Source: a virus | IMG/VR virus record: IMGVR_UViG_3300044640_000597 | Location: 21,966-85,965 of that record | Direction: 5' to 3' (one strand) | DNA: 64,000 nucleotides | Position numbers and translations under genes: made by a program | In this document: positions 836-64,000 of the stretch, piece by piece | Layout of the letters: every line of letters begins with the position of its first letter | How positions within the stretch are numbered: the stretch's first letter is position 1 | The notes under the pieces: model-generated | Seen by the model: only the letters and a program-made list of their open reading frames with translations | Databases searched by the model: none | Told to the model about the DNA's origin: nothing

Positions 836-3800
836 TTATAACATACAAATTTGTGTAACATCTGATTGGGCAACCTTCGTAGAAGTTGCATCGTAATAAG
901 CTTGAAGCATGCTCATTATGTTATTAGCATTCTCAGTACTATCCCCAAATGTTCTCTTGTTTAACCAGTCTCCCCCAACGATATGCTTCTTATTGTTAGT
1001 GGTTCCGAACATGCTCAAATATACGGTTTTATCCGTAGTCTCTGTAGGGTTAGCTTTAACATAAACACCAGACTCCCCTTTTGAAGTTCGGAATACCATT
1101 ACACCAGGAGCTTCTTGATTACCCCCGAACTTCTTATTAGATATTTTGTGTACCTTTTCTAGTTTAGTATACTCTGGTCCGAGTGAGTGTCTTTGGAGAA
1201 GGTTTCTTCCTCCTGGACGAATCTCTCCATACACTCTAAAGAATCTAGCTAAGTCCTCAGCATCAAAGTATTTACCTGTCTGCATCTTAGCAGACTCTCC
1301 GTGCATGTAATCAGCTACACTTATTGGCTTCAAAGTCTTACCAGTTATAGCTGTGTTTACTTCTCTGCTCATAGGGTTAAGCCAGAACTGAGGAGGGATC
1401 ATAGACACATAGTTAAATGCAGACTTTCTAAATCCATTAGAGATCAAAGCATGCATGCATAAGTCGAATCCTATCTGTCTAATCTTTTCTACATTCTTCT
1501 TATACTCCTCCAGATTGTCTGTCTTCTTTACATAAGCCTCTGGTTTGTATAGAAGGTTATGTAAGTCATCTTGAATTCTAGACTTTTCCTCTCTTGAGAA
1601 CTGTTGAGTAGCATCGAAGTTAAAAGTCTTGAAGTTTTTAAACTTACTGTTATTCTCATCTTCAGTAAGCTTCATCAAGAACTCGTTACCTGTTAGGTTA
1701 CCAAACTTTGATGCAGCCTCTTCAATCCTTTTCCACAATGTAAGAGCAGGTTTACCCTTCTTAGTCTTTGGATCTATAGTAGCAGGATCTATATAACCTG
1801 GCTTGTACAATCTCTCACTGTACTCTACATTCATGTACTGTGCTATAGGAGATTCTTCTTTAGTTAGGATAGTAAACATGATAGCAGCATTTACGTCTCT
1901 GTGATGATCCGTAGTCATAGCATCAAGACTAGCAGCTGTTCTGATTGCTTCTTTAAACTTAAGAGAAGACTCAGATGTAGTCATAGGGAATAGAACACTG
2001 GATACCCCAGCCATCTCACTTAGCAGATTGTCATATCCTCTTTCAAATCCATAAATAGAATTCTCATCAAAGAATTGAGTAAGTACGTTCTCATCTTTAC
2101 CTCTTCCGTAGAATGCTATCGGGGCATTGTTTAATTTACCACCTTTTGGATTGTCAAACTTTTTCTTCTTTCCCATATGCTCCTGAATTGCTTCAAGTCG
2201 GTTGATACCAGAGGTTGTATCTGGAGAGATAAGTCTGAATGCTTCTTTGAGTTGGCTACCTGCAGTGTACATCTTAAGGAAGTTTTGCAAAGCTCTTTCT
2301 TTATTGACAGTTAATGTCATTATAGATTGACGAGTCATTGCAGTTGTTTCAGAAATGTTCTTGTAGTTAGTAGGAAGGTCTTCACTACCCAATGTAATTC
2401 CGTTCTTATCAGCTACTTCTTTATAAGCTTCATTAATCTTAGACAGGTCATCATTGAACTTGATAGCCATTGTATCTACAAAGTCTCTGATGATAGGCTG
2501 ATTAAGGAAGTGATGTAGAAGCTCTGTATCCCCATAGTATTGTATCCACAAAAGTTCTACAGGGAAAGTAACTGCATTATCATTTACTATATAATGGTAC
2601 GGAGCTTTAGTAGCATCCACAGCTGCGTTAAGATAACGAGACATTATTTTATCTGTAGGTTCTCCAGCATCATATGCGAATCCACTAGATGCAGGAATTA
2701 TTTCTTGCATCTTAGTGTTAATCATCTCCCCTGCAATCTTAACTGCAAACTCAGATTTAAGATTAAAGTTATCAGATACAGTAGCAATGTTTCTTCCAGC
2801 AAGTGCATTTGCCCATAGACCTCTCATCTTGTTTCCAAGCATGTTTCTAACAGCACTGGTAGTTTCATACATACCACCTGTAAACACTTTGCTTGGGGCC
2901 AACTCTCTATTCAATTCAATTATAGAAGTTCTTATATTTTTAAGTACTTCGTTATCCAAAGGTCTAAGTGTTTCTAAGTAATGCTCAGGAGAAGAGAACA
3001 CAGCCTCGATTGTATCAAGTACAATATTGGTCAACTCCTTATCAGATATCTTAGATACATCTTTAGTTTTAGCAAGAGTTTTATAATCAGGTCTTACTTT
3101 AGTACCATCCTCGTTTAGCTCAGGGAATAACAGGAACATTTTATCTACGTCAAAGTCAGATCCCATAAGCTTTACAAGCTGTGGGGGAACTACTATTGCC
3201 TTTTCGTATCCAGCAGGAAGTACAGATTTAATCTTGAAGATAATGGTAGATGCTTTATCCTGGTTAGGGATACGGTAACCAATGATTCTTCTGAGTTCTT
3301 CTGGGATGTTATTAGCATCTAAGTCTGCACCTGGTTCGATTCCAAACTTTCTAAGTACATCCTCTCTGATCATGATCTCAGCATGAGCTAGTCTAGTACC
3401 TCTCCTTTTATTTGTAGGATGGTCCACAACCTCAAGGAATTTCAAAGAACGATCTACTTCGAATCCACCTAGAGCTGCAGTTTGTACAGCTTCGTACCCT
3501 GGTACATATTGTTTAAATACTCTGTTGTTATATACACTAAGCAATGCACTTTGGAAAGCAGTACCGTATACAGGGAAGTCCATTGGTATTGCGAACCTAG
3601 CAATACCAGTAACAGGATCAATAGTTATATCAAGAGCCTTAATGAAGTTATCACTTAACTCTCTTTCTATAGCCTGCTCCTCAATTAGGTTTCTGATATT
3701 CTTAAGTAGTCTGGCTTTTGCTTCTTTAAATTCTTGAGCACCTTTTATAGAGTCAACATTTGGTTTCTCAGACTTAAGTTTGTTTACTACCTTTCTGAAT

Positions 3801-6800
3801 TCTGACAATCCAATCTCATTATTTACACTCTCGAGGTCTCTTCTGAGTCTCTCTTCGATAGCAGCATGGTAAAGAGCAGTCATGTCTGCCCCAGGAATAG
3901 CCGTCTCTCCAGCTATACCTGCATTATAGTAGTATAATTCAGTAGACTTTACGTTAGCAATAGCATTCTTTTTAATCTGTCTTCCTAATATAGTCTCTGA
4001 ATATTCTTTTGCTGCTGGAACAGTCTGTGGGAAACCGAGAGCTGATGTAGAGTTTCTATTGATTTTTACATTTCTAAAGAAGCCTCCTTGAATACGAGAC
4101 CACCCTTTCATATTAAATACATTTAACTGGACACCCTTCTTAGCAGATACGGCACTAGCTGTGTGTATCTTTTTCATTCCTGCATAAGGATTGTTTGCTT
4201 CATTAGGGTTGGCTTCCATCCTCATCCTCATATCATCCATTACAGGGAATGCTTTAGTATACGACTTAAGCAATGGGAAGTAAGCTGTCTTAGTAAGGTC
4301 TACAGCAACAGTTCCTCCTATAGATTTAACTTCTTGTCCAAATGGTTTATAAGGTCTGATAGGGATATCCTGTCCAACCTTTGCTCCTCTTGGAAGATCT
4401 TTTACACCAGCAGGATATACAAACTTTCCTTCTGGATCGTTTTTATAATTATTGTATGCTACCTCATGGTATTGAAACCATTCTCCTTCTCCCTGCATGA
4501 TTTCCCTAAGCCAATCGATGGATATCAAAGTCAAACCATCGTGCTCTTCAAAGCTACCTGCTTTGTACTCATCAGTGAATGCTGCTTCAGCTGCTGTGTA
4601 TCCTGACTTAAGCAACATTTCTTTTGTACGATTGGCCCAATTGTTCATCTCTGTTGCTATGGCTGCAGTAACCTGACCCATAGGATCATCGAATACCATC
4701 TCGTTATATTCAGAGATAGCTCCATAACGCTCATCCATCCAAGGCACATAATTCCCTAATCCATCCTTTTTAGCTAGTGTGTTCTTTTCAGCAAGCTTAG
4801 TACGAGGAGTAGTCAGAAGTCTTTGACGTTTAGTAAAATCTTCAATGTTTTTAAACAAAGCTCTGTTACCTCTAGTCAGTTTAATGATTTCATTTCTCCC
4901 TAAGTCTTCATGTATAAGGAAGTCTTTAAGCAAAGGAATCATAGCCTGTACAAAAGGAGAGTTGCCTTGCTCGTCTTTCTTTCTTTTAGACAAATCTACC
5001 CCTGCGATATCAGCCCACTTCTTAAGCAGTTTAGAATTTACATCATTCTTTCTGTCTGCCTCTTCTATTGTAGCAGCCATCTGCTTAGCTTGACCAGTGT
5101 AAAATAAAGACAGCCCACTAATCATTTCTGTAAGTTCATTTCTAAACTGCTGCAGCTCTTGAGATAATGGAAGATTGCTTTTTGTTTTTCTAATAAACTC
5201 TTCTGCAAGGTCAGACATTCTCATAACCCCTATACTAGAGTTAATAGCTCTGTCTGTTACAATTCTGTTCCCTAGTTCATCTATACCATCAAACTGCATG
5301 AACTCATCACTTAGGCCTCTCATCTGACCAGTATGGTAATCTGGGATAAGAGTAACATTAGGATCTTCTTTAGATGCAGCTATTGTAGCCCTAGCTTGTT
5401 TGATTCTTAAAAGGTCTTGTAGGATTGCATCTCTAAATACATCACTAACACCGTTCTTCTTATTGAACTTAGTATCAAAGTGACCTTTAATCCTAGGCAT
5501 AAGCATCATATCAAAACGAGCTCTATCTGCCTGAGCAGGTACAGCTACGTAATAATATTTCTCATTAAAGTTATTATTGTAGATCTCAAGTCTTGTTAGT
5601 ACAGAGTCTACATTATTGAAGTCTTCATAATCCAAAGCATCATCTCCGTAGTCTCTGATACCTGCCAGTGGGGATGTCTTAAAGTCCCTTAGGAATTCTT
5701 CATTCTGTGTAAGATGGAAGAACAGATGACTAGGCATCATGTCAGGTGGGAAGATAAACTTATCCTTTCTGTACAGAGGTAATGCCTGCTCTTTGTTTGC
5801 AGTTACATCCTTTCTAATTTGGAAAGGAAGTTCAGAAAGAGTTGTAGCCATATTAACAGGATACATTGCTGACCCTGTAGGAGTTACAAAGCTTTCAGCT
5901 ACTCTGCTAGTAAACAATGGAGCTAAGCCTGCAAGGAACTTCATACCTTGCTTTTCTGTGTTGAAGTATAAAACTGGTTTTTCTTTTTTACTTTCTATAC
6001 CTACCCCTTCTCTGCTAGTACTTACATTTGCTATAGCTTCAACCATTTTAGATAACCTAGCTCTTTCAAAGATTGCATCAAAAGCTTCTTTTCCTATAAC
6101 AGTATGGTTTTTTACTTTACCAGCTTCGGTCTTACTTATCTTGAAACCTTTGTTGATCAGATTCTGGACATTAATTATAGTGTCCATTTGATTCACATTG
6201 CTACCAAAGTTAAACCCTAGCTCCCATATGAGACTCCCTAATGCCCATGCAGGAGAATCTATGACAGGTTCTTTATTAAAGAACTCTGCATTTGGATCTT
6301 CATTAGGTTTAAACTGCATCCTATTGAAGCCGTAGGCTTTTTTAAAAGCCTCTTTAATTTTATTAAACTTAGCAGTCTTAACAACAAAGCCTGAAGCTTC
6401 GTCATCTTCTTCTGATAGTGTCTTTGCAAATACAGCTCTACTTGATCCTTCCTCTCCTTCTTCCTGACCATTGATTTCAACCATCTGCCCAGTCCACTGT
6501 TTAACAGCTTTCTGTTCAGTTGTAGAACTATTAGCATTAAGTACCTTACCCTGACTCCCCAGAATTGCCATGTTAAACTCTGCTAGAGTTTGAGCAAATG
6601 TTTTATACAACAAGGCTCTCTCATTACCAGGCATACTCATTATACGTTGGTTAATGGAAGAGTAGTCTGGTCTATACTTAGAAGCCTCTATAAGCTTCTC
6701 TTCCATCTCCTGAAAAGAACCTACGTCTGCCCATAACTCTGAGAGTTGTTTGTAGACATACCTTAAAGACCAGTACTCTGTCTGATCAGTAAAAATGTCA

Positions 6801-24600: not shown

Positions 24601-27362
24601 AATGTAGGTAGCCTAAGTAGACCCCCTAATTGTTCTGTAGAACCTGTAGCAGTATTGGTATAAGTAGACCCTACGTCTATTAGATTTCCAGTAGAATCAA
24701 TTCTTGTTCCTGGGGCTGAATATCTAGAGGCAATGTAAACATTCCCCCAAAGTAGCCTTGGTCCAGGTAAATCCCAGTAAGGATCTTCTTCATCTGCAGC
24801 ATCGAAGTTAATCATGTTACCAAGGTCAGGGTGCACCCAAGAGAATGTATCTTCTCCAACTCCAGATCGAAATTGTCTATAAAATGTATTTATTGCATTG
24901 CCTCCTGTAGTCCCAGGAATGGCACTTGCAAGAGCACCTTTATATCCACCTCTCCAGTTTTCCATCATTACAACGTACTGGATGTCTATGTGAGTAGCTG
25001 TAGCAAGAGTATACTTTTTTCTTAGTAGAGTAAAGTCGTGAAACTTAAGTACAGGGTTTCCCATGTAGTAAGCTTGAGGAGGAGCTGATGGGGGACCGAC
25101 AACTTCGGGGGCCCATAGTGCATTAGCAATCATTAACCCTCCATACTTCTGGTGACCATCCATAGCCCAGATGTTAAAGAATGGTCCAGTACCAGCACTT
25201 TTGTTGGTGTTAATTAAGTTAGATGCTAGATAAGAAGTTCCTGGATGAGCCCCACTTTGTCCTATAATAGTTTTATTTCCCTCAGTTCTTTTGGCATAGT
25301 ATACTCTATATCCTTGTACTTGATTAAGTATAAACTTTGGAATTTTTATATTATTTAGCTGTACTCCTAATATCCTTACAGTCTCTGAGAAATCTCTTGC
25401 ACTTGCTTTAGTCAAGTATACAGAGTCAGCGGTAGATATATCAGGGCTTCCGAAATACGTGTCTCTAACAACGTGGCTAAAAGAAGCGTTGTGGTTAGAT
25501 GGCATTTTATGATGTCTTACAAAATTACTAGCTAATGCATTTCCTAAATATATACTTTGCCCAGAAGAATCCACAGCCCAAGATGTAAAGTCATTGGTGT
25601 CTGGATATCTTTCATTTTGATTTCTCCAGAACCCCATATTGTTAGTCGGATTAATAGTAGACATGTAACTAGTATCCAAATACTGATAAGGTAATGAGTC
25701 TGGTGAATAAGCTAATATTTCATCATACTTAAAAATATCTCCATCAGGACCTATATTGTTTGGCAAGCTTGCCCAGTCTAATTCAAACCTATCTGCTATG
25801 TTCCTCCCAGGTATATGGTAAGCATAACTCTCACTTCCATCTTTTAAGATAAAAGAAATATAAAATGCATAAACTTCTCCACGTCTGTAGCCTTTTCTTT
25901 TAAATAAAATATTAGGATCCCGATAACCAGCTGACGTCCCTCTTTGAATAGGAACAATAACATTACTAATGTAAGCATCAGTTACACCATCCATTCCTTC
26001 CAACTCTGCATACGGTATAGTACCAAATGTTCCTACTGGATACCCCTCAGGGCTGCCACTTAAAGGGGGGTACAGACTTGTATTCGGATCTGGGTAGAAT
26101 AGTTGAGAGTAGCCTTCATTTAAATTGTAGACATCATAGTGCCTAGGATCAAATTGTGTTAGAGTGTCAGTTACAGCTTCTATTACAATTTCATTTGCAA
26201 ATCTTTGATACCCTAGATCTGGTCTGCTAGTAAGATTAGCAGCATACAACTTGTTATCTAGTTGAGTGATTGATTTAGCAGTTAAGTATCTTACTTTGTC
26301 TAGTACAGCTTCTTCAATAGCAGATGCTGCTGATTTTTCTAACCCACTATAAACTACCCCTGCAGTTGTACCTAAGATGTCTAGTTTTTCTAGCTTGTAT
26401 ACAAATCTAGCTTTACCACTATACTGTATTACGTAGGGGATAATGTAAGAGTACTCTCTGTTAATATCAGAGATGTTCCAAACAATAGACTTATTTGTCT
26501 GAGTATTGTTTGGGGCTCCACTAATAGACTCTCTAGGAATTGTAGTGTCGTCTCCTGGAACTATGTATACTGGATTTGATACTGTTAAAACATTTGTCTC
26601 TGTACCGTCTTGATCAGCATATGCTATGCCTATATAGTATGCTCCTGTAACAACCCCACCACCTTTTAGAATTTCAATAGAATCAAATTTAGGTATTCTT
26701 CCTGCATCTAAAAAAATATTTAAGAATTCTACTCTCGAGTTATTTCCGTATAGATTAGAAGGATTTGATGTAGTAGTGAGAGAGTCTAGCTGCTTAGTTA
26801 TGTTAAATACCCTAGGTGGATTGTATCTATTTATGTACTTAATATTACTAGCAGGATCTGTGATAAACTCATAGTTATTATCTGTAAAGTATACAAGTTC
26901 TTCTTGAGCTGGAGATACTCTAAACTCACCAGTAACAGGATGCTCAGTATCAAAATTTAAATGTCCTAGTGGGTTAACTGCTCCAGTTAGAGTATTTTTA
27001 TCTGTAGTATAATATAATACGTCAGCAATTTGAGTAGCTACGTTTACATAGAATATAGCAGAAATGTTTATTACACCATGTACTAAATCTGTATACTGAC
27101 CTGAGCCAAATATGATAAAGTTATCATTTAATAAAGCAATCTGTCCTATTGGAGAAATAGCTACATTTTGAGTACCTCCTCCAGAGATAAGAATGCCTGA
27201 AATATTTAAGGTACCAACTTGTATGTTACCATATTCATTCAATACATTTAATTTCTGATCGTCTACGATAAGATTAACAGCATCTCTATAGCTACCATCA
27301 ATCTGATCCATACGACCAGTATCTTTAATCATCCCCTTTAGAGGCTTAAATGTATCTGCCAT
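21672..27362 (-). CDS. Tail muzzle / tail stabilisation protein (P22 gp10-like)
   Basis: 1896 aa. KGMIKD..., GYRRGEVYAFYISFILKDGSES and WTISFS...WASRHSYIP motifs; position after the ring protein. Confidence 0.75.
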   Translation of the reverse strand: MADTFKPLKGMIKDTGRMDQIDGSYRDAVNLIVDDQKLNVLNEYGNIQVGTLNISGILISGGGTQNVAISPIGQIALLNDNFIIFGSGQYTDLVHGVINISAIFYVNVATQIADVLYYTTDKNTLTGAVNPLGHLNFDTEHPVTGEFRVSPAQEELVYFTDNNYEFITDPASNIKYINRYNPPRVFNITKQLDSLTTTSNPSNLYGNNSRVEFLNIFLDAGRIPKFDSIEILKGGGVVTGAYYIGIAYADQDGTETNVLTVSNPVYIVPGDDTTIPRESISGAPNNTQTNKSIVWNISDINREYSYIIPYVIQYSGKARFVYKLEKLDILGTTAGVVYSGLEKSAASAIEEAVLDKVRYLTAKSITQLDNKLYAANLTSRPDLGYQRFANEIVIEAVTDTLTQFDPRHYDVYNLNEGYSQLFYPDPNTSLYPPLSGSPEGYPVGTFGTIPYAELEGMDGVTDAYISNVIVPIQRGTSAGYRDPNILFKRKGYRRGEVYAFYISFILKDGSESYAYHIPGRNIADRFELDWASLPNNIGPDGDIFKYDEILAYSPDSLPYQYLDTSYMSTINPTNNMGFWRNQNERYPDTNDFTSWAVDSSGQSIYLGNALASNFVRHHKMPSNHNASFSHVVRDTYFGSPDISTADSVYLTKASARDFSETVRILGVQLNNIKIPKFILNQVQGYRVYYAKRTEGNKTIIGQSGAHPGTSYLASNLINTNKSAGTGPFFNIWAMDGHQKYGGLMIANALWAPEVVGPPSAPPQAYYMGNPVLKFHDFTLLRKKYTLATATHIDIQYVVMMENWRGGYKGALASAIPGTTGGNAINTFYRQFRSGVGEDTFSWVHPDLGNMINFDAADEEDPYWDLPGPRLLWGNVYIASRYSAPGTRIDSTGNLIDVGSTYTNTATGSTEQLGGLLRLPTFLPNQANLLSDAQSIFMIEPNGATYLAGLSILKSTSANSFKSSTYLHNTFGESAIALSLESGLPMLGGYRSNEWSYVGLGNLMWSLPIYAAGTLYPLISGINPDFYPANNINDGGLGASFVTDLSEWYGLMSRGHGSLRQPYAIRTPDTSGVPASINITGGSTAGLPVITTFDPDINNLFVGMLVTSGAGYLPTTGPVYIESLDASGGIITLTENILITDPINGYNFYPRGGIEGSPVNDPRTRPNVYLVNLCATKTDVYEPFDSQKLVWTGYYKSLLNVNIDTGYDAEDDNYYYGQGSTSSSEPVFGGDTYLCKYSYRTTSNLYGLGRFNRGVNRYLDFSNPTGSQDDYLFGDIPIDLTEGRTPSFGTNIFGTTSDYDVLRFGGSGPYPQGGDEIEGLRRSAVTTDDNWSKNGNVAFSTIYQFIVESDDNINYRHAGDPEAGVSELNSMYFDKYVAADVLWRSPLGDLTKMDNILYEDHYSASQDIRVTIPFPKEAISTPFFPNRVIRSSAQDGNFNDTYRYFLGLQYKDFAVNRGQITNIFNLKALLYIHTEKSLFRTKGKQNLELSDATQAYIGSGDLFAQEPDEFIQSTEGYNGLYNKMGSLVTKDGYIFVSRKSRKIFLVKDEIVDLTELGINAWARENIPFALEAYGWDPDGARVMDSAVYNVDSPTADFGFLVSYDPLFKRTIITKRELIPTQYFVEEFKQNRIFFQNEKNQFYDSNTSSFIPLEEGVYFERGGWTISFSNGMSIWASRHSYIPPLYAYNSKYLYSFDTQILPFVGQYTYMYEHSDLSNPGNFYGTVYNFEIDCIFTAPVNAIYTSFKYTADVFSKVNYSLPVEQQFHPGFTSFYVYNTTQISGEIDFVYLNNIRKTDNTWNINAFRDLSNIANNTGLAVGQINVQGVPYTSTFASTSTEPMFLYEGIINSNYINSNKPWYEQRKFVDKFLGIRLIANNLSRNLINLYTVTAALRVSPR

Positions 27363-57920: not shown

Positions 57921-58150
57921 TAATTTTTCTTAACTTGGGCTTGTATTCTAAAGTGAGTCTTTTCTTGTTCTGCAGCTAAGATAGCCATGATTCCCCTGAG
58001 TTCCTCATAACTAAACTGACATACAAACTTGTCCTCGTCATCTAGAAACTGCACAACCATCTCATCTATATAGACAACAAGTTGAGTAGTGTTCTCATCC
58101 CCTGTAGTAAACGGGGGTTGGTAAATCCCTGCTTTGATGGTAGTTGGCAT
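57920..58150 (-). CDS. Hypothetical protein
   Basis: 76-aa ORF coupled to the fibre gene. Confidence 0.6.
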   Translation of the reverse strand: MPTTIKAGIYQPPFTTGDENTTQLVVYIDEMVVQFLDDEDKFVCQFSYEELRGIMAILAAEQEKTHFRIQAQVKKN

Positions 58151-58199
58151 ATGAGAAAATTTTCTTTAAAGGTACGGATAATTTCCCAATTGGGCACAC

Positions 58200-58448
58200 C
58201 TATCCCCTTAGAGATTTTTTTGTTTAAAATTGAGTTTCAGTTCTGCCGTCTTTAGCCTTCGGTGGGACATTCCATTCTTCCCTATAGTCGTAATCCACCC
58301 CAGAACCTTATATCAATTCCATTTCAGCAACTATCGGGGACAACTTTCATACTCTATGTAATTGAAAGTGAGTATGATAGAACCCAACGTCTGACCCCTT
58401 ACTTACCTTCTGGCCCTCAGGGGTGATCATCTTAATAGATGGTTGCTA
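58200..58448 (-). ncRNA. Candidate structured ncRNA (~250 nt)
   Basis: ORF-free, multiple nested helices, and TACATTTG promoter box immediately upstream at 58453-58460. Confidence 0.5.
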
Positions 58449-58465
58449 TTTGCAAATGTATACAA

Positions 58466-58600
58466 TTATCCTTGCCCCTTGCTAACTTTCTTGTAAAGTT
58501 TTGAACTTTTAAGTTTAGAGTGCTTTTTCTTAGAATGAACCCCTGGACGTTTCTTTCTAGGGTTTGGGGACCAGGAGTTTACGGAGTTTATTTTTGCCAT
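58466..58600 (-). CDS. 44-aa highly basic protein (not in ORF track)
   Basis: MAKINSVNSWSPNPRKKRPGVHSKKKHSKLKSSKLYKKVSKGQG; A-rich leader and TAAATTTG box at 58618-58625. Confidence 0.65.
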   Translation of the reverse strand: MAKINSVNSWSPNPRKKRPGVHSKKKHSKLKSSKLYKKVSKGQG

Positions 58601-58685
58601 TTTTGTTTATTTTGTAACAAATTTACTATGAAAAATGTTACGAACTTTTACTATCTTCGTGCCTTACAATTTAAATCCAAATATC

Positions 58686-59006
58686 ATGTTCCCAATTTCA
58701 TCAACCAACGAAGAGAAAGTACTCGTATCCATCAACCCAACAACTGCTGCTGGTAACCCTGCAACTGTTGACGGAGTTCCTGTTTGGACAGTAGTATCTG
58801 GTGATTGCACTGTAGAACCATCTGCTGACGGTCTATCTTGCTACATCATTTCAGGTCAACCTAATGTAGCTAACTTGATTGAAGTTTCAGCTGATGCTGA
58901 TCTTGATGCTGAGGAAGTTCGTACTATTACTGAGACTATCGTTTACACAGTAGTAGCTGCTGAAGCTCAAGCTCTCGGAATTGTATCTGCTGTTGAACCT
59001 AAGTAA
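58686..59006 (+). CDS. Ig-like beta protein (possible virion decoration)
   Basis: Start MFPISS at 58686; V/T-rich beta pattern (GNPA.VDG.P.W.V); strongly biased codons. Confidence 0.55.
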   Translation: MFPISSTNEEKVLVSINPTTAAGNPATVDGVPVWTVVSGDCTVEPSADGLSCYIISGQPNVANLIEVSADADLDAEEVRTITETIVYTVVAAEAQALGIVSAVEPK

Positions 59007-59018
59007 TCTTAATCTAAG

Positions 59019-59324
59019 ATGAAACTTAACGTATACTTCGACAATGCTTCTGTTTTTAACTTTGAGAAACTCGACGTTATCGTTGGGGAGAAGTTTAAAG
59101 TAGAGGCTACCGAAGCTCCTGAAAATGTTGCATGGTTCTTCGATAACGATCCAGTTGTACAAGCTGAGGCCATGGGGAACCAAGCAATTATCACAGCAGC
59201 TCAAGAGGGGATGACTAACGTACTATTTGTAGTTAACAATAGTCAAGTTATTCACAAGTTTACTATTAACGTAGTAAATCCCGTAAATTTGAACCCTGTA
59301 GTTCTAAACGTAGAGCTAAAATAA
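59019..59324 (+). CDS. Ig-like (Big_2-like) small protein
   Basis: V.WF.DN..V.......A.ITA...G.T.V pattern. Confidence 0.55.
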   Translation: MKLNVYFDNASVFNFEKLDVIVGEKFKVEATEAPENVAWFFDNDPVVQAEAMGNQAIITAAQEGMTNVLFVVNNSQVIHKFTINVVNPVNLNPVVLNVELK

Positions 59325-59346
59325 ACCCCGTCTTAACCTAAGAACT

Positions 59347-59374
59347 AGCCTCCTTATTGGGGGCTTTTTCTTTT
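59347..59374 (+). terminator. Intrinsic terminator
   Basis: AGCCTCC-TTATT-GGGGGCT followed by TTTTCTTTT. Confidence 0.75.
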
Positions 59375-59432
59375 ATACCCTATGAGGTATAATTTTAATG
59401 ACAACTCATGTATTATACCTTATTGGGTGTAA
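59373..59432. repeat. Two 20-nt imperfect palindromes, 40 bp apart
   Basis: TTATACC-CTATGA-GGTATAA (59373-59392) and TTATACC-TTATTG-GGTGTAA (59413-59432). Confidence 0.7.
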
Positions 59433-59601
59433 TTGGGTGTGTTATCGGTCAAGTTAACTGCGTAAAAACTTGACATAAAATTTTTTTTAGGGAAATTTTC
59501 TGAGAGTGTTGTCCTACGTATTCAAAGACCCCCGCTAAGTTTTGGAGGATAAGTATATCCCCCATAATAATTTATTCGTAAACTTCATAAATCTAAACAC
59601 A

Positions 59602-59901
59602 ATGGCTAACACCACAATGTTCACACCTAGCACAGCAAAGCTTTGTGCTCGTAAGAAAGACAACGTAGTTTTCTCTCTTTACTTATCTAATAGTGTAAAG
59701 GCTAGCGCCAATTACAATATTAAGAAAGTAAAAGGTAAATTGCACTTCGAAATCGAAGCTCAGAACACATCTAAAGAAGATGACAAAGTTCTGATGACTG
59801 CATTCGTCTATAAAGACGATGCCAAGTGGAATGAGATTCTCACTTGGTGTGTGCAGGAAGGTCTTCTCGGAGAAGACGAAGCACAAGCTGAGATGAACTA
59901 A
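59602..59901 (+). CDS. First early-region hypothetical protein
   Basis: Start MANTT at 59602 with A-rich leader; followed by a terminator. Confidence 0.65.
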   Translation: MANTTMFTPSTAKLCARKKDNVVFSLYLSNSVKASANYNIKKVKGKLHFEIEAQNTSKEDDKVLMTAFVYKDDAKWNEILTWCVQEGLLGEDEAQAEMN

Positions 59902-59915
59902 GAAGCTTGAAAATT

Positions 59916-59939
59916 GGGGGACATTCGTCCCCCTTTTTT
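59916..59939 (+). terminator. Intrinsic terminator
   Basis: GGGGGAC-ATTC-GTCCCCC-TTTTTT. Confidence 0.8.
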
Positions 59940-59949
59940 GGTTTATTTT

Positions 59950-60697
59950 TATGTCGATACTCGTTACTAAGCTCGTTACTAATAAATTATTATGTGTGTT
60001 GGAGAGATTGATTGCCAATACTCTCACACTCATTAAGTGTGGTATCATGATGACTATCTAACTAGTTGTATAACATGGTATCACACTTTATCCTCTTGTG
60101 TCTGATTAACAGAGACACAGATAGGGTATGACTGTAACCCATAGCAATACAGTTATTATACATTCTAGTTATAACTTTAACTGGTAAAACTTGTACTGAT
60201 ATACAGGTAATCCTATACTAGATAGGTTCTTGGTTCCGTGGCTTGACATCCATTGTTAAAACAAGTTGTTATATGATACCTTAAATTAAACCTGGAATAT
60301 GGTTGCACCGCTTGTAGGTCATGGTGTGTAAAAGTAAAACAGCCTTCTAATAATCCTAAGTGGATAGCTTCTCACTGATGCTTAAAGTGTTCTTTTTATT
60401 TAATTACTTATTTATTTATTTTCCTTAATTAATGGGTGGGATTAATGTAGTTAATATCCTATACCCAAAAACCTAAGAAATGCAGAATATGTGTTGATAC
60501 TTACTTAAACACTATTCCACCTATCAGTACTCTAAAAGAGAGGTTGTTAAACTGATATTAAAAGGTGTAAGACAATCCTATTTAGTCCTAAGCATGACAC
60601 TAAACTGCTTATTCATAGTATCGTTACTCTTTCTTTAACCGAGTATCTATCCAGTAAGCTGCTGGCGTTTGTGGGTGTCCAGATAACCCTCATATTT
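59950..60697 (+). ncRNA. Candidate large structured ncRNA (~740 nt)
   Basis: No plausible ORF; nested long-range helices and many hairpins (see findings); ends at a predicted ribozyme cleavage site. Confidence 0.45.
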
Positions 60698-60872
60698 AAT
60701 GCACCATAACTATCTTCCCAAGGGATAGCAGTTGTAATAACTAATGATATTGTAATAGGGTCTCAACAATACTGTTGCAACAGGTTGAGTAGGAATGCAC
60801 AATTCCCTAAATATCAAGACAGCTATGTTTGTCATTAGTATTAGTTGTTACAACTGAGTGCAGAGGGGATAT
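60692..60872 (+). ncRNA. Twister-like ribozyme (type P1) with large P5 insertion
   Basis: P1 ATATT/GATAT, UAA, P2 TGCA/TGCA, P4 CTATC/GATAG with loop TTCCCAAGG, pseudoknots CC:GG and CCC:GGG, conserved GA, 17-bp P5 stem. Confidence 0.65.
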
Positions 60873-60918
60873 TAAATTAGTAATCAATAACTTAAATCAT
60901 ACTCAAACACTTAACATC

Positions 60919-61155
60919 ATGAAACAAGCTGTTAAATTCTTATCAAAGATTGCTCAATTAGTACTAATAGCATGTGTAGTATTCGTTACTCCTGCTATTG
61001 TACACTGTATTGTTACCTTTACGTTCAGTCATTACATCAATGACTTGAGCTCGACTATTTACTGTGGTCTTATGAGTTTCATCTCATTGATTGTTACTGT
61101 ATTCTACATTGCTATTGAAGCTGAACGTATTGAAGATAAACCTTCTAACTTCTAA
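60919..61155 (+). CDS. Small two-TM membrane protein
   Basis: Start MKQAVK at 60919; two hydrophobic segments. Confidence 0.6.
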   Translation: MKQAVKFLSKIAQLVLIACVVFVTPAIVHCIVTFTFSHYINDLSSTIYCGLMSFISLIVTVFYIAIEAERIEDKPSNF

Positions 61156-61167
61156 TACTATAGCACT

Positions 61168-61359
61168 ATGAGTAACAAGACTAAATTTGCTGAGGATATG
61201 ACAGCCTTCGGGTTGTCTATCCTTATCATTATCCTTATTGTGATAATGATGACATCATGCTCTACATCTAGAGAGTATGGATATCAAGACCATCTAAGAT
61301 CTACTCACCACAAGAACTTTATCTCTAAAGATAATGGTGGTTGTGGGTGGAATAAGTAA
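61168..61359 (+). CDS. Small putative lipoprotein
   Basis: Hydrophobic stretch ending in a lipobox-like MTSC. Confidence 0.55.
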   Translation: MSNKTKFAEDMTAFGLSILIIILIVIMMTSCSTSREYGYQDHLRSTHHKNFISKDNGGCGWNK

Positions 61360-61455
61360 GGACTTTACCTATTGGACTTCATACAATAGCAGCTTAACGG
61401 TGAGGCTTAAACCGTTCCTTTTAATCTGTAATCAATAACAAACACATATAAAATC

Positions 61456-62094
61456 ATGACACAGTTAAAACAAACAGCGGTCGAATGGGTATTCGACAAG
61501 ATGAGTAATGTATTAGCTGGTAATTCCAGTGTAACTACTCAAGAAATACTAGAGCAAGGACTAGCAATGCATCAAGAACAAATTGAACAAGCTTGGATGG
61601 ATGCAGAAGATAATCTGCTAACCGAAGAGTCAGCTAAGTTCTTTGCAGAGAAATACTACAACAAAACATATAAAGTAGTAGAGGAGGAAGTAGTGGATGA
61701 CGAAGGTGATGGCACTATTCCTCAAGCTGAAGACTGGTTCATTGATATGGTCAATGAAGATGCTCATCCAGATGATGACTCAGAGTATCGTCAGTATCGT
61801 GAACGTGCTGATGTACCAGAATACATCATTGCATCTATTAGTCTTGATGCTTACGAGACATATGTATTCGAAGCTACTGCTGATGGTAACATAGTAACCT
61901 TCGATGAGTATGGTGGATTAGCAGCGAGATGGGGTGATGCTAGATGGTGGGATGCTGAAGCTGCTGTTAAATCATGTATGAGAAACAGCTATGATTTAGT
62001 ATCTGTTAAAGGTAATCACTATCTATTCAAGCTAGTTAAACCTGATGAGCTCACTCATTTCGATGGTGATGAATCAGATAGAATCAGCTATTAA
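61456..62094 (+). CDS. Hypothetical early protein (KQTAVEW N-terminal module plus acidic domain)
   Basis: 212-aa ORF with A-rich leader. Confidence 0.65.
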   Translation: MTQLKQTAVEWVFDKMSNVLAGNSSVTTQEILEQGLAMHQEQIEQAWMDAEDNLLTEESAKFFAEKYYNKTYKVVEEEVVDDEGDGTIPQAEDWFIDMVNEDAHPDDDSEYRQYRERADVPEYIIASISLDAYETYVFEATADGNIVTFDEYGGLAARWGDARWWDAEAAVKSCMRNSYDLVSVKGNHYLFKLVKPDELTHFDGDESDRISY

Positions 62095-62095
62095 T

Positions 62096-62464
62096 ATGAA
62101 GACACTTACCTACATCAAGAGAGTTGAGATAGAAGAAACAATACCGTTTCCTATCATCACATTTGTTGCTGAGAAAGTGCGAGTTAGTACAGGAGATAGC
62201 TCATGGTTTGACATGGGCTATACTCCTAGACTCGATGGTCTGACAGTACATCAGTATCGTAAACTCCATAATGCTTGGGATAGAGATATCGATATAGCCT
62301 TAGAAGAATATGTAAAGACTACATATAATCTACGTAGTGGATGGGGTCAAGTAGACTACCATGTCTATTCAGCTAAACAACTTGGTATGCCTGAGCTTAC
62401 TAAAGTTGATCCAAAGTTTAACGATGATCATGCTGATCTAGTTAGAATGTTTACAGGGGCTTAG
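62096..62464 (+). CDS. Hypothetical early protein
   Basis: Likely start MKTLTY at 62096, 1 nt after the upstream stop. Confidence 0.6.
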   Translation: MKTLTYIKRVEIEETIPFPIITFVAEKVRVSTGDSSWFDMGYTPRLDGLTVHQYRKLHNAWDRDIDIALEEYVKTTYNLRSGWGQVDYHVYSAKQLGMPELTKVDPKFNDDHADLVRMFTGA

Positions 62465-62469
62465 TCCCC

Positions 62470-62532
62470 TTTTACTAATGCAGCCAGTGTAACAACTGAA
62501 GGTCACAAGCCCTTTAATGCAGAGTGGTAAAA
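62470..62532 (+). ncRNA. Twister self-cleaving ribozyme (type P1)
   Basis: P1 TTTTAC/GTAAAA, UAA, P2 TGCA/TGCA, P3 CAGT/ACTG, P4 AAGG/CCTT, loop TCACAAGC, pseudoknots GC:GC and CAC:GTG, catalytic GA. Confidence 0.9.
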
Positions 62533-62572
62533 TCAATTCATTCATTTAATTTATTATTTAATCATCAAAATC

Positions 62573-63178
62573 ATGATGAACAACACAATCAACAGTGGCT
62601 CGTTGCAGGGATTGCAAGCGGGTCAAACCCTTTTACTCCAAGCTCGTAAGGTTAATGGAGGTAAGATTCAATTGGAATTTGCTGAGATTGTCAAAACACA
62701 GTCTACTGCAGCAAACCCACTTGCTATCTTTAACAAGTCAGACGACCGTTTCTCACAAGGCAATGGTGCTCGTCGTGCTTGGCTTACTGCTGAAGCTAAG
62801 GATGCTTCGGTTTATCTCAACATCAACCTGATGGATGATGCTGATTGGGAGGTTGACCAAATGGGACGTGAGATACTCCCATTGAATGTCATCAATCCAA
62901 TTGCTATCATCAATGCGGAAGCATTCCCATTGAAGGTGCAAGTTGAGGAGACTGTTACTCCTACAGATTGGCAGGCAAGCAACGTCGAAACTGCGGCTAA
63001 GCGTCGTGGTAAAGATGGGGACTTCATCACTCACCAAGGTATGTACATCTTTGCTAACACTCGTGTAGTGTTTAACAAAGCTAATCACATCTTCCTTGAA
63101 GTGGATGCTGCTAAGTCAAATGTATCTACTGGCATTCCTGCAAGTGGTAGCTTTGACTCAAGTCCGTTCTTCAGCTAA
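62573..63178 (+). CDS. Hypothetical early protein (possibly ssDNA-binding)
   Basis: 201 aa, beta-rich, C-terminal ...DSSPFFS tail; lies before the DNA polymerase. Confidence 0.5.
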   Translation: MMNNTINSGSLQGLQAGQTLLLQARKVNGGKIQLEFAEIVKTQSTAANPLAIFNKSDDRFSQGNGARRAWLTAEAKDASVYLNINLMDDADWEVDQMGREILPLNVINPIAIINAEAFPLKVQVEETVTPTDWQASNVETAAKRRGKDGDFITHQGMYIFANTRVVFNKANHIFLEVDAAKSNVSTGIPASGSFDSSPFFS

Positions 63179-63191
63179 TTATAGCTGAGTA

Positions 63192-63272
63192 AATCAGGTA
63201 GCTCAACTGGTAGAGCACTGCAAGTTCTGTTGAACTCTTGCATGGATATGGGTTCGAATCCCATCCTGATTT
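63192..63272 (+). tRNA. tRNA-like RNA with aberrant, elongated anticodon arm (no assignable anticodon)
   Basis: Acceptor AATCAGG/CCTGATT, D arm GCTC-AACTGGTA-GAGC and T arm ATGGG-TTCGAAT-CCCAT are all canonical. The anticodon arm is ~25 nt. Confidence 0.7.
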
Positions 63273-63436
63273 CAAAAACCCTCTCATTGTGTACTACGAA
63301 TAACCATTGAATAGACTATAGCAGGTTTGGGGTTGCCTGCTGTCTGTTCTCTGGCATATAAGCAAGAGAAAACAAGGGACACCGTTCGTTTGTTACTAGT
63401 TACGAAACAATTTAATTTAATCTAAATCAATAACTT

Positions 63437-63670
63437 ATGTCAAGAATGAAATTAGTATTAGACTTGATGGAGTCTGGGACTTATCAAGCGTTTGAACTAC
63501 AAGCTATGATGGCTAGCCAACGTGGAGAAAGACAATTCCAGTTTGGTAATGCATCGTATGATGTAGAGTTTGCTGCCAATGTGATGGCTTATATTTACCA
63601 CAAAATTGCACAACAACACCATGAACAACATTTTCTTTATCAGCAAGAACCAGGCACTGATAGCGAGTAG
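63437..63670 (+). CDS. Hypothetical protein
   Basis: 77-aa ORF with A-rich leader; overlaps the polymerase start. Confidence 0.55.
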   Translation: MSRMKLVLDLMESGTYQAFELQAMMASQRGERQFQFGNASYDVEFAANVMAYIYHKIAQQHHEQHFLYQQEPGTDSE

Positions 63671-64000
63671 TTTCAAGACATGTACAATCGAAGAAGCTGT
63701 TGAAGATCTACTAACTAGTAAGATACTAGGTGTGGATACAGAGACAGAAGGATTTGATTTCACATGTAAGAAACTGCTAATGCTGCAGATCGGTGATGCA
63801 GAGCGTCAGTATGTAATTGATTGTAGAGATCTAACTTATGCAGATCAAGTGCAATTGAACAGGGTATTAAACAATGAGGATATCGTCAAGATATTCCACA
63901 ATGCAAAGTTTGATTACAAGTTCATTAAGCACTATCTTAAGATAGATACTGTAAACATTCATGATACATACCTATGTGAGAAAATATTACACTGTGGGAA
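63621..64000 (+). CDS. Family A DNA polymerase, N-terminal 3'-5' exonuclease domain (runs off window)
   Basis: My translation: MNNIFFISKN...ILGVDTETEG...LQIGD...IFHNAKFD...IHDTYLCE, giving ExoI/ExoII motifs. The polymerase domain itself is outside the window. Confidence 0.8.
   Translation, partial: MNNIFFISKNQALIASSFKTCTIEEAVEDLLTSKILGVDTETEGFDFTCKKLLMLQIGDAERQYVIDCRDLTYADQVQLNRVLNNEDIVKIFHNAKFDYKFIKHYLKIDTVNIHDTYLCEKILHCG

Follow-up and report, generated by a model that had tools for sequence, protein, structure and literature searches.

A putative modular non-coding leader of an early operon in a freshwater crAss-like phage, with a conserved two-hairpin RNA element

The DNA analysed here, the last 64 kb (64,000 nt, hereafter the window) of an 85,965-bp IMG/VR virus contig (IMGVR_UViG_3300044640_000597), contains a gene-free gap of 1017 nt at 59902–60918. 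Our reading, to which we assign a probability of roughly 55%, is that an early transcription unit of a freshwater crAss-like phage has this gap as its leader, which is long, modular and non-coding and carries a conserved RNA element at its 5′ end. Comparative sequence analysis indicates that this element, designated M1, is a previously undescribed, clade-restricted two-hairpin 5′ RNA element of ~100 nt (~170 nt together with the adjacent module M2) that is supported by covariation. Little is established about early-gene control in crAss-like phages, and M1, a small element found without exception at the start of one early operon across a clade of uncultured crAss-like phages from lakes, provides a concrete and clonable candidate for studies of early-transcript control.

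The gap was located between the stop codon at 59901 of a gene encoding 99 aa (59602–59901) and the ATG at 60919 of a gene encoding a 78-aa membrane protein (P0004). The initial annotation, made from the sequence alone, had described an open reading frame (ORF)-free region of ~740 nt as the largest gap in a gene-dense genome. The gap is indeed the largest in the window, and the ORF-free region was shown to extend over the whole 1017 nt: no + strand ORF of at least 40 aa was present in the gap with any of four genetic codes (tables 11 and 4, TAG=Q, TAA=Q), and the alternative codes opened no plausible gene. A decayed gene was also rejected, as tblastn with the small ORFs that relatives have at this site gave matches only where non-coding DNA is common to both, in more than one frame and on either strand.

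Sequencing runs containing the stretch originated from lake and freshwater metagenomes, the DNA runs covering 54–100% of it. A blastn search against 50,697 GenBank phage records gave no matches, and no relatives were retrieved with the upstream 99-aa protein as search handle. The 201-aa protein encoded downstream (62573–63178) was used as a query and gave 11 IMG/VR loci, and a degenerate pattern of the second M1 hairpin yielded further loci from IMG/VR and the JGI/ENA metagenomes. The comparison set thus comprised 22 related freshwater phage contigs and the window, i.e., 23 distinct sequences, in which loci are referred to by L-numbers (L002 etc.). The gap measured 351–1017 nt among close relatives. 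Its mosaic make-up was mapped by blastn against the 22 relatives, and folding z-scores were obtained by comparison with shuffled sequence.

The following features define M1 and its immediate surroundings:

59916–59941, + strand: intrinsic terminator of the upstream 99-aa gene; 7-bp stem with six G-C pairs, followed by a T-run
59956–59995, + strand: putative promoter-like region; GTTACTAA repeats, then an AT-rich box ending just before hairpin 1
59994–60029, + strand: M1 hairpin 1 in the window form; GAGAG (60002–06) pairs with CUCUC (60021–25), extended by UGUG/CACA, in the minimum free energy structure
60035–60088, + strand: M1 hairpin 2; 12-bp outer stem, 3/7-nt internal loop, 5-bp inner stem, 6-nt loop

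Hairpin 2 was found in 23/23 distinct sequences including the window, with a constant GUG-to-CACUU span of 52 nt and a conserved AA in the 6-nt loop. For 21 aligned sequences RNAalifold predicted 20 pairs, eight of them changed on both sides; one G.U pair, in the outer stem, was invariant in all 21, and further wobble pairs were present. The form of hairpin 1 in most relatives is AGAUG-GAAG-(variable stem-loop)-CCAAC-N-CAUCU, with the outer-stem variants AGAGU/ACUCU, AUAGU/ACUAU and AGAGG/CCUCU and compensatory changes in three of the five pairs of stem a. The window form of hairpin 1 is shared with the four closest relatives and is covered by the covariance model match described below; it is invariant among its carriers, and its pairing is a prediction.

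Over the 16 sequences with the common hairpin 1, 98.1% of the cells in M1 were paired, with 100% and 96% in the two helices of hairpin 2, and 11 of 26 pairs were changed on both sides, although three outer-stem changes separate just two clades and the independent events are thus fewer than the cell counts suggest. None of 500 shuffles reached these values, and when partners were slid by 1–3 columns the paired fraction was 32–49%, with no more than three doubly changed pairs. A covariance model (R1) was derived from these sequences and detected one copy in the genome (67.7 bits). A weak second match (25641–25738; 23 bits, expect value (E) 0.004), inside a coding region and without the inner hairpin, was taken as chance. 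M1 gave no match to any Rfam family. Besides the stems, unpaired nucleotides are conserved in GGAAG, CCAAC, the linker and the internal loop, which suggests that M1 is recognised by RNA polymerase or a protein and does not simply confer stability.

Two other readings of M1 were rejected. A leader peptide of 13–14 aa overlapping hairpin 1 was unconserved, and its frame was broken in L007 and L009 (by eye). The early genes of crAss001 have been reported to encode a TROVE-domain protein (PMC8375218). A Y-RNA/Ro ribonucleoprotein reading of M1 was dismissed, as TROVE (Ro, PF05731) gave no matches in the 85,965-bp genome and was detected in control genomes.

Excess folding was located wholly within 59990–60170, where z was −5.0 and none of 200 shuffles folded as well; for 60171–60690 z was +0.16, and 53 of 100 shuffles folded as well. 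The heavily paired RNA of ~740 nt proposed initially therefore holds for its first part and not for the ~520 nt that follow. Likewise, the whole region (z = −2.1, 20 shuffles) fell within the range of coding controls from the same window (−1.3 to −2.3), and the middle ~520 nt showed no conservation among relatives. All the helix segments listed in the initial annotation were present at the positions given there. However, 59950–60697 contains 31, 6 and 1 perfect complements with lengths of 7, 8 and 9 nt, which does not exceed the 34.7, 9.4 and 2.5 of dinucleotide shuffles and tends to fall below them, so that an 8-bp helix said to close the whole region is expected by chance.

The strand of the structure could be assigned. 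The wobble pairs of M1 become A.C mismatches on the opposite strand, and the + strand folds better for M1 (−36.8 vs. −26.2 kcal/mol) and for hairpin 2 (z = −4.7 vs. −3.0), which places the M1 structure on the + strand, the sense strand of the flanking genes. The whole stretch also folded better as + strand (−180.6 vs. −158.5 kcal/mol), and a preference for this strand, deduced earlier from G-U pairs, is in agreement with the invariant G.U pair of M1.

These strand data bear on the possibility that the region acts at the DNA level, its hairpins and repeats working as single-stranded or extruded DNA. It could then be a virion RNA polymerase hairpin promoter (as in N4), a signal for origin or priming function, or a site close to the end of the genome. 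In favour of this, the + strand block leading into the DNA polymerase gene has the region at its head, the iteron-like GTTACTAA repeats and a very AT-rich tract (60392–60432) are present, and several contigs of relatives terminate no more than a few kb away. In addition, the virion polymerase of the crAss-like phage phi14:2 was assayed on denatured DNA, and its early transcripts showed no common upstream motif (10.1101/2020.03.07.982082). Against this, the invariant G.U and the other wobbles exist on the + strand only, and for the flanking genes this strand is not the template. In N4-type promoters the hairpins form on the template strand, and the position of the wobbles thus counts against such a promoter. 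Moreover, compensatory changes that keep pairing over a 52-nt hairpin with conserved loops are typical of RNA, the number of repeats varies from one to three, and the cumulative GC-skew minimum lies near 58.7–59.0 kb, away from the gap. A DNA-level function is considered clearly unlikely.

The sequence following hairpin 2 was examined for the possibility that M1 is a stand-alone, trans-acting small RNA gene of ~110 nt (a protein decoy or antisense RNA), with hairpin 2 and a U-rich tract as its terminator and everything downstream being read-through or a unit of its own. In nearly all sequences UUU comes after hairpin 2, and in about a third (L009, L024, L032–L035) the sequence there is UUUCUUUU; loop and internal-loop sequences are conserved far beyond the needs of a stem alone, and a second AT-rich promoter-like box at ~60420–60432 resembles the box before M1 (by eye). 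However, the tail is U-poor in the window and many relatives (UUUAUCC or UUUAUAAC), several loci have an ORF starting 22–33 nt after hairpin 2, which leaves no room for a separate promoter, and neither a target nor a protein partner was identified, the Ro protein being absent from the genome. Such a small RNA gene appears rather improbable.

In the preferred reading of the gap as a modular leader, M1 forms the 5′ end of the transcript. A strong terminator had been noted just before the region, and this was confirmed: its stem (59916–59933, followed by the T-run) is kept in close relatives and ends the preceding transcription unit. Other + strand terminators within 3 kb were found at 59347 and 62456. 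The tandem repeat also noted earlier is present as CTCGTTACTAA copies at 59960 and 59972; relatives contain 1–3 copies, followed by an AT-rich WWTTAK box that ends 2–4 nt before M1. With a terminator and then an AT-rich box upstream of M1, the transcription unit would start just upstream, with M1 as its 5′ end. In every locus M1 follows the preceding small gene, with its terminator hairpin, at a distance of 90–170 nt, and always heads the operon of the small membrane-protein gene. The first downstream ORF lies 22–830 nt beyond the end of M1 and differs between loci, being either the membrane-protein gene itself (49 nt away in L028) or an unrelated ORF of 51 or 78 aa. M1 is kept whatever follows and thus behaves as a portable operon-head element.

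The modules distinguished in the gap by comparison with relatives were:

59907–59940, + strand: terminator module, common to close relatives (blastn)
59990–60092, + strand: M1, present in all relatives (blastn)
60096–60167, + strand: M2, present in six loci, L002, L004, L006, L042 and L049 among them
60168–60366, + strand: M3, shared with one short contig only (L034, a 1.7-kb metagenome contig)
60367–60391, + strand: M4, in five loci; identical in L006, L042 and L049, present also in L004 and L034
60392–60432, + strand: AT-rich tract between M4 and M6, overlapping the start of M5
60411–60584, + strand: M5, with a counterpart in no relative and unique to this genome
60585–60646, + strand: M6, in L002 and L035 only and there just 26–27 nt, at 60585–60612
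60647–60740 and 60844–60879, + strand: M7, a twister core with a 45-nt 5′ flank, in four loci at 95–98% identity
60872–60918, + strand: M8, an A/U-rich leader directly 5′ of the ATG at 60919, in nearly all relatives

Within M2, hairpin 3 (60097–60103 with 60113–60119) showed two compensatory pairs, and the pairing of hairpin 4, around 60124–60154, was ambiguous. The GACTGTA/TACAGTT pairing in M2 was retained in the window and L002 only, relatives favouring another register. No excess folding was detected in M3 (z = +0.5), which contains ATGATACC (60273–80), paired at long range with the 5′ arm of hairpin 2 in the initial annotation, or in the segment 60392–60646 (z = −0.3), which contains CGAGTATC at 60640–47. 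A 22-nt word of M3 (60229–60250) and a 20-nt word of M5 (60430–60449) had no exact matches elsewhere in IMG/VR. The leader module M8 was covered over 60872–60914 by 10–17 loci. In L004, L042 and L049, M4 directly abuts M8, and the window therefore has an extra ~470 nt (60411–60871), with the twister module included. We consider 60168–60691 (~600 nt) to be most likely lineage-specific inserted sequence, in which neither structure nor conservation was detected. The DNA between M1 and the gene leader forms a hot spot at which RNA modules, ribozymes and tiny ORFs (51 and 78 aa) are exchanged.

The 25-nt block of M4 (GCTTCTCACTGATGCTTAAAGTG-like) was 100% identical in three otherwise diverged relatives (L006, L042 and L049); it showed no obvious stable fold and no Rfam matches. 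The assignment of M4 or M1 to hammerhead, pistol, hatchet or hairpin ribozymes, based on CUGAUG- and GUAUA-type motifs seen by eye, was rejected, as there was no Rfam match and the core nucleotides misfit. A further non-coding module of ~135 nt, lying between the twister and the membrane-protein gene, was observed in L030 (oriented; +165 to +300 after hairpin 2) and also in L047, and is closed by an 11-bp helix (CTATCTATGTC/GACATAGATAG).

This mosaic make-up bears directly on the possibility that the region encodes one large (~700-nt), globally folded functional non-coding RNA that extends from ~59950 to a ribozyme-made 3′ end at 60697, like ROOL, GOLLD or the long RNAs of phi14:2. The stretch is free of ORFs and folds better as + strand, a twister-like ribozyme would define a 3′ end at 60697, phi14:2 makes abundant long non-coding RNAs at the equivalent genome place, and transcription starting at ~59995 without termination would release a leader fragment of ~700 nt. 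However, 60171–60690 folds no better than shuffles, 60411–60584 has no counterpart in relatives and 60168–60366 is found in a single contig, and relatives link the same ends by as few as 49 nt (49–830 nt, unrelated in sequence). The helix proposed to close the region (GATACTCG/CGAGTATC), an 8-mer match of the kind expected by chance, occurred in the window and L002 only and is missing from the other twister-bearing relatives; in L030, L041 and L047 similarity begins at 60647, just past it. The second long helix of the initial annotation (60041–55 with 60264–80) uses the 5′ arm of hairpin 2 and thereby competes with that covariation-supported hairpin. Its partner lies in M3, common to L034 alone, where the helix pairs more poorly than in the window. 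No Rfam matches were obtained for GOLLD, ROOL or other families. Neither long-range helix could thus be upheld, and a single large RNA seems very doubtful. In AT-rich phage DNA, many hairpins and a lack of ORFs over a long stretch do not by themselves imply a single large structured RNA.

At the 3′ side of the gap, comparative alignments supported a twister-like ribozyme, with the following predicted parts:

60692–60873, + strand: twister-like ribozyme, type-P1 layout
60692–96 with 60868–72, + strand: P1
60700–03 with 60859–62, + strand: P2
60710–14 with 60724–28, + strand: P4, with loop L4 at 60715–23
60730–60855, + strand: P5, carrying a large insert
60647–60691, + strand: M7a, the 45-nt 5′ flank of the twister, with two small candidate hairpins (CCAG...CUGG and GGGU...ACCC)

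The core, as judged against the Rfam consensus (UAA at the cleavage site, P2, P4 with a UCCCAAG-type loop, and GAGGG), was found in the window, L002, L010, L030, L041 and L047. Among these six variant sequences, a small sample on which the compensatory support for P4 and the pseudoknots rests, P4 showed three compensatory variants (CUAUC/GAUAG, CUAAC/GUUAG and CUCAC/GUGAG). Pseudoknot T1 was CC:GG in the variant, compared to GC:GC, or AC:GU in L009-type, in canonical copies, and T2 was CCC:GGG compared to CAC:GUG in the canonical copy. P5 varied in length from 8 nt (L030) to ~126 nt (window), and the element folded with z = −3.9. By analogy with twister, the RNA should be cut between U60697 and A60698. 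The 3′ end made by a ribozyme, which the initial annotation had placed at this site, is in this respect supported by the comparative data, self-cleavage itself being a prediction. A twister-like sequence directly after hairpin 2 in L039 was not counted as a ribozyme, as it is without the GGG of pseudoknot T2.

The flank M7a was 95–98% identical in L002, L030, L041 and L047, while neighbouring genes showed only 70–87% identity. Similarly, 60612–60740 showed 97.7% identity to L002 (4327–4456), compared to 72–87% for the flanking genes of these two phages, which suggests recent horizontal exchange of the twister module.

A canonical twister was detected at ~62470–62532, 1.8 kb downstream of the twister-like element and upstream of the 201-aa gene. 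Canonical copies matched RF03160 (twister-P1) with 40–52 bits (E 1e-8 to 1e-5), below the gathering score of 67.2; the variant gave no match to RF03160 at E up to 10 in the window and at E up to 1 in L002, L010, L030, L041 and L047. A terminator-like hairpin (62456–62468) lies just upstream of the canonical twister (62456–62532 together), and this arrangement is retained in L002, L006, L007, L011 and L047. The U-tract of the terminator is also the 5′ strand of P1 of the canonical twister, so that termination and ribozyme folding may compete.

Metatranscriptome data touched parts of the region. Six runs contained 6–10% of the words of 59300–61500, and contigs of four runs, placed on 58000–64000, covered neighbouring coding regions and 60716–60867. 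On 59809–60612 the cover of the same contigs was almost nil (depth up to ~1 in one run); such contigs cannot show RNA ends, strand or absence, and this result is therefore neutral on expression. The P4–P5 part of the twister-like element with its ~100-nt insert (60716–60867) was found in contigs of three runs with two differences in 152 nt and a depth of up to 30, joined to a different upstream sequence from 60716 backwards, and another contig skips 60741–60842. The ~100-nt insert thus appears to move as an independent module.

Taken as a modular leader, the gap would work as follows. Transcription would restart after the terminator at 59916–59941 from the AT-rich box at ~59980–59995, and the first ~100 nt of the RNA would fold as M1 (59994–60088), extended in this lineage by two hairpins to ~60160. 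Placed at the operon head before a small ORF, RNA modules, a twister or the membrane-protein gene, M1 may act as a portable cis-acting "operon-head" RNA, and a cut at 60697/60698 would detach the mRNA for the 78-aa protein from its leader.

As to the role of M1, a 5′ structure that stabilises the early transcript or directs its processing is put first, tentatively. Ranked closely behind it is a factor-independent antiterminator for read-through of the terminator-rich early region, by analogy with the put RNA of phage HK022. A small RNA of ~110 nt, ended by hairpin 2 and the following U-rich tail, is a distinctly weaker candidate. It is also conceivable, with low probability, that M1 represents a new RNA class that reprograms RNA polymerase or a host factor, i.e., a factor-independent antiterminator at the early-operon head of Bacteroidota-infecting crAss-like phages, which is released by the twister together with its cargo as a stable early non-coding RNA, a counterpart of the long non-coding RNAs of phi14:2.

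Several observations weigh against the modular-leader reading or parts of it. The promoter consists of a conserved AT-rich box only, which gave no match in a sigma-70 scan and is not an exact match to the Bacteroidota promoter motif TAnnTTTG. Contigs of four metatranscriptome runs barely touch 59809–60612 and give no direct evidence of a transcript. Much of the M1 covariation splits two clades only. The perfectly conserved 25-mer M4 is left unexplained by a leader, and the segments 60152–60252 and 60612–60740, 93–98% identical to single relatives, possibly reflect constraint and not recent exchange. Finally, a twister downstream would cut a 5′ stabiliser from the mRNA, which argues against the stabilising role in those phages.

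Outside the gap, the window codes for giant proteins of 1,319–2,497 aa and a dense − strand block of structural genes. Gene strand switches at ~58.2–58.6 kb, with small + strand genes of unknown function from 58635 onward. PHROGs and Pfam searches of the neighbouring small proteins gave nothing informative except a DNA polymerase exonuclease domain from 63606, downstream of these genes. The + strand block matches the "early genes" end of crAss-like genomes as in phi14:2 and crAss001. A tRNA-shaped gene was found at 63192–63273 (Rfam tRNA, 52 bits; called "tRNA-???" by ARAGORN, a normal anticodon loop being unassignable), and relatives contain versions of 81–91 nt at the same site directly after the 201-aa gene. 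Besides, the leader upstream of the 99-aa gene (59452–59604) showed 90% identity to L004, in which a counterpart of the 99-aa gene was undetected (tblastn). Following a terminator (59347–59365), it may be a second conserved non-coding leader.

Comparison with known systems showed likenesses and differences. The stretch is like ROOL and GOLLD RNAs, which are phage-associated, ORF-free, several hundred nt long and often near tRNA-like genes; in the initial annotation its size was compared with this class, and no family was assigned. However, cmscan of the whole window at gathering thresholds gave the tRNA-like match only, and a permissive Rfam scan of 59300–61200 (E up to 10) found no GOLLD, ROOL, HEARO, OLE or raiA and no family for the stretch. 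Conservation covers 100–180 nt and not the stretch as one unit, and no excess folding was seen in the middle; membership thus fails on all three features tested, i.e., model match, unit conservation and folding.

The element at 60692–60873 resembles twister type P1 (RF03160) in the order P1, UAA, P2, P4 with UCCCAAG-type loop, P2′, GAGGG and P1′, and both pseudoknots are formable. It differs in that T1 is CC:GG and not GC:GC, L4 has 9 nt and not 8, P3 is missing, the P5 insert reaches ~126 nt and the Rfam model gives no match.

In phi14:2, long intergenic regions among the first early genes were reported as early, abundant, non-coding RNAs of unexplained function (10.1101/2020.03.07.982082). 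The window resembles its regions g004-g005 and g005-g006 in belonging to a crAss-like phage with long ORF-free stretches among the first small early genes on the same strand; in the phi14:2 record the ORF-free gaps are at 1279–1983 and 2905–4601. However, no sequence or structure similarity was detected, model R1 being without a match in the first 9 kb of phi14:2. One of its regions also scores as transfer-messenger RNA (tmRNA), whereas neither ARAGORN nor Rfam (RF00023) found a tmRNA in the window, although the same tools detect the one in phi14:2. Further analysis of this "long non-coding RNA" (g005-g006; L023, NC_021806, 4031–4502) gave 46 bits with the Rfam tmRNA model (E 7e-16; gathering score 47), and ARAGORN calls it a tmRNA with the tag peptide GSSVQKLAMVA*, a feature that the GenBank record is without.

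Hairpins processed by RNase III in the early region of T7, e.g., R1.1, lie between the early genes of a processed polycistronic transcript. M1 differs in occurring once, at an operon head and not between each gene pair, and its cleavage is conjectural; the likeness is that of a hairpin of ~50–60 nt, conserved among related phages, in which an asymmetric internal loop divides the lower from the upper stem. The put (polymerase-utilisation) RNA of HK022 is a factor-independent antiterminator of ~70 nt with two adjacent stem-loops immediately downstream of an early promoter. M1 has no sequence relationship to it, is longer (~100 nt, with a conserved linker of ~10 nt) and comes from a phage whose host is probably a member of the Bacteroidota. 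The two are nevertheless alike in layout: M1 also has two adjacent stem-loops at the head of an operon containing terminators, where it could act in cis.

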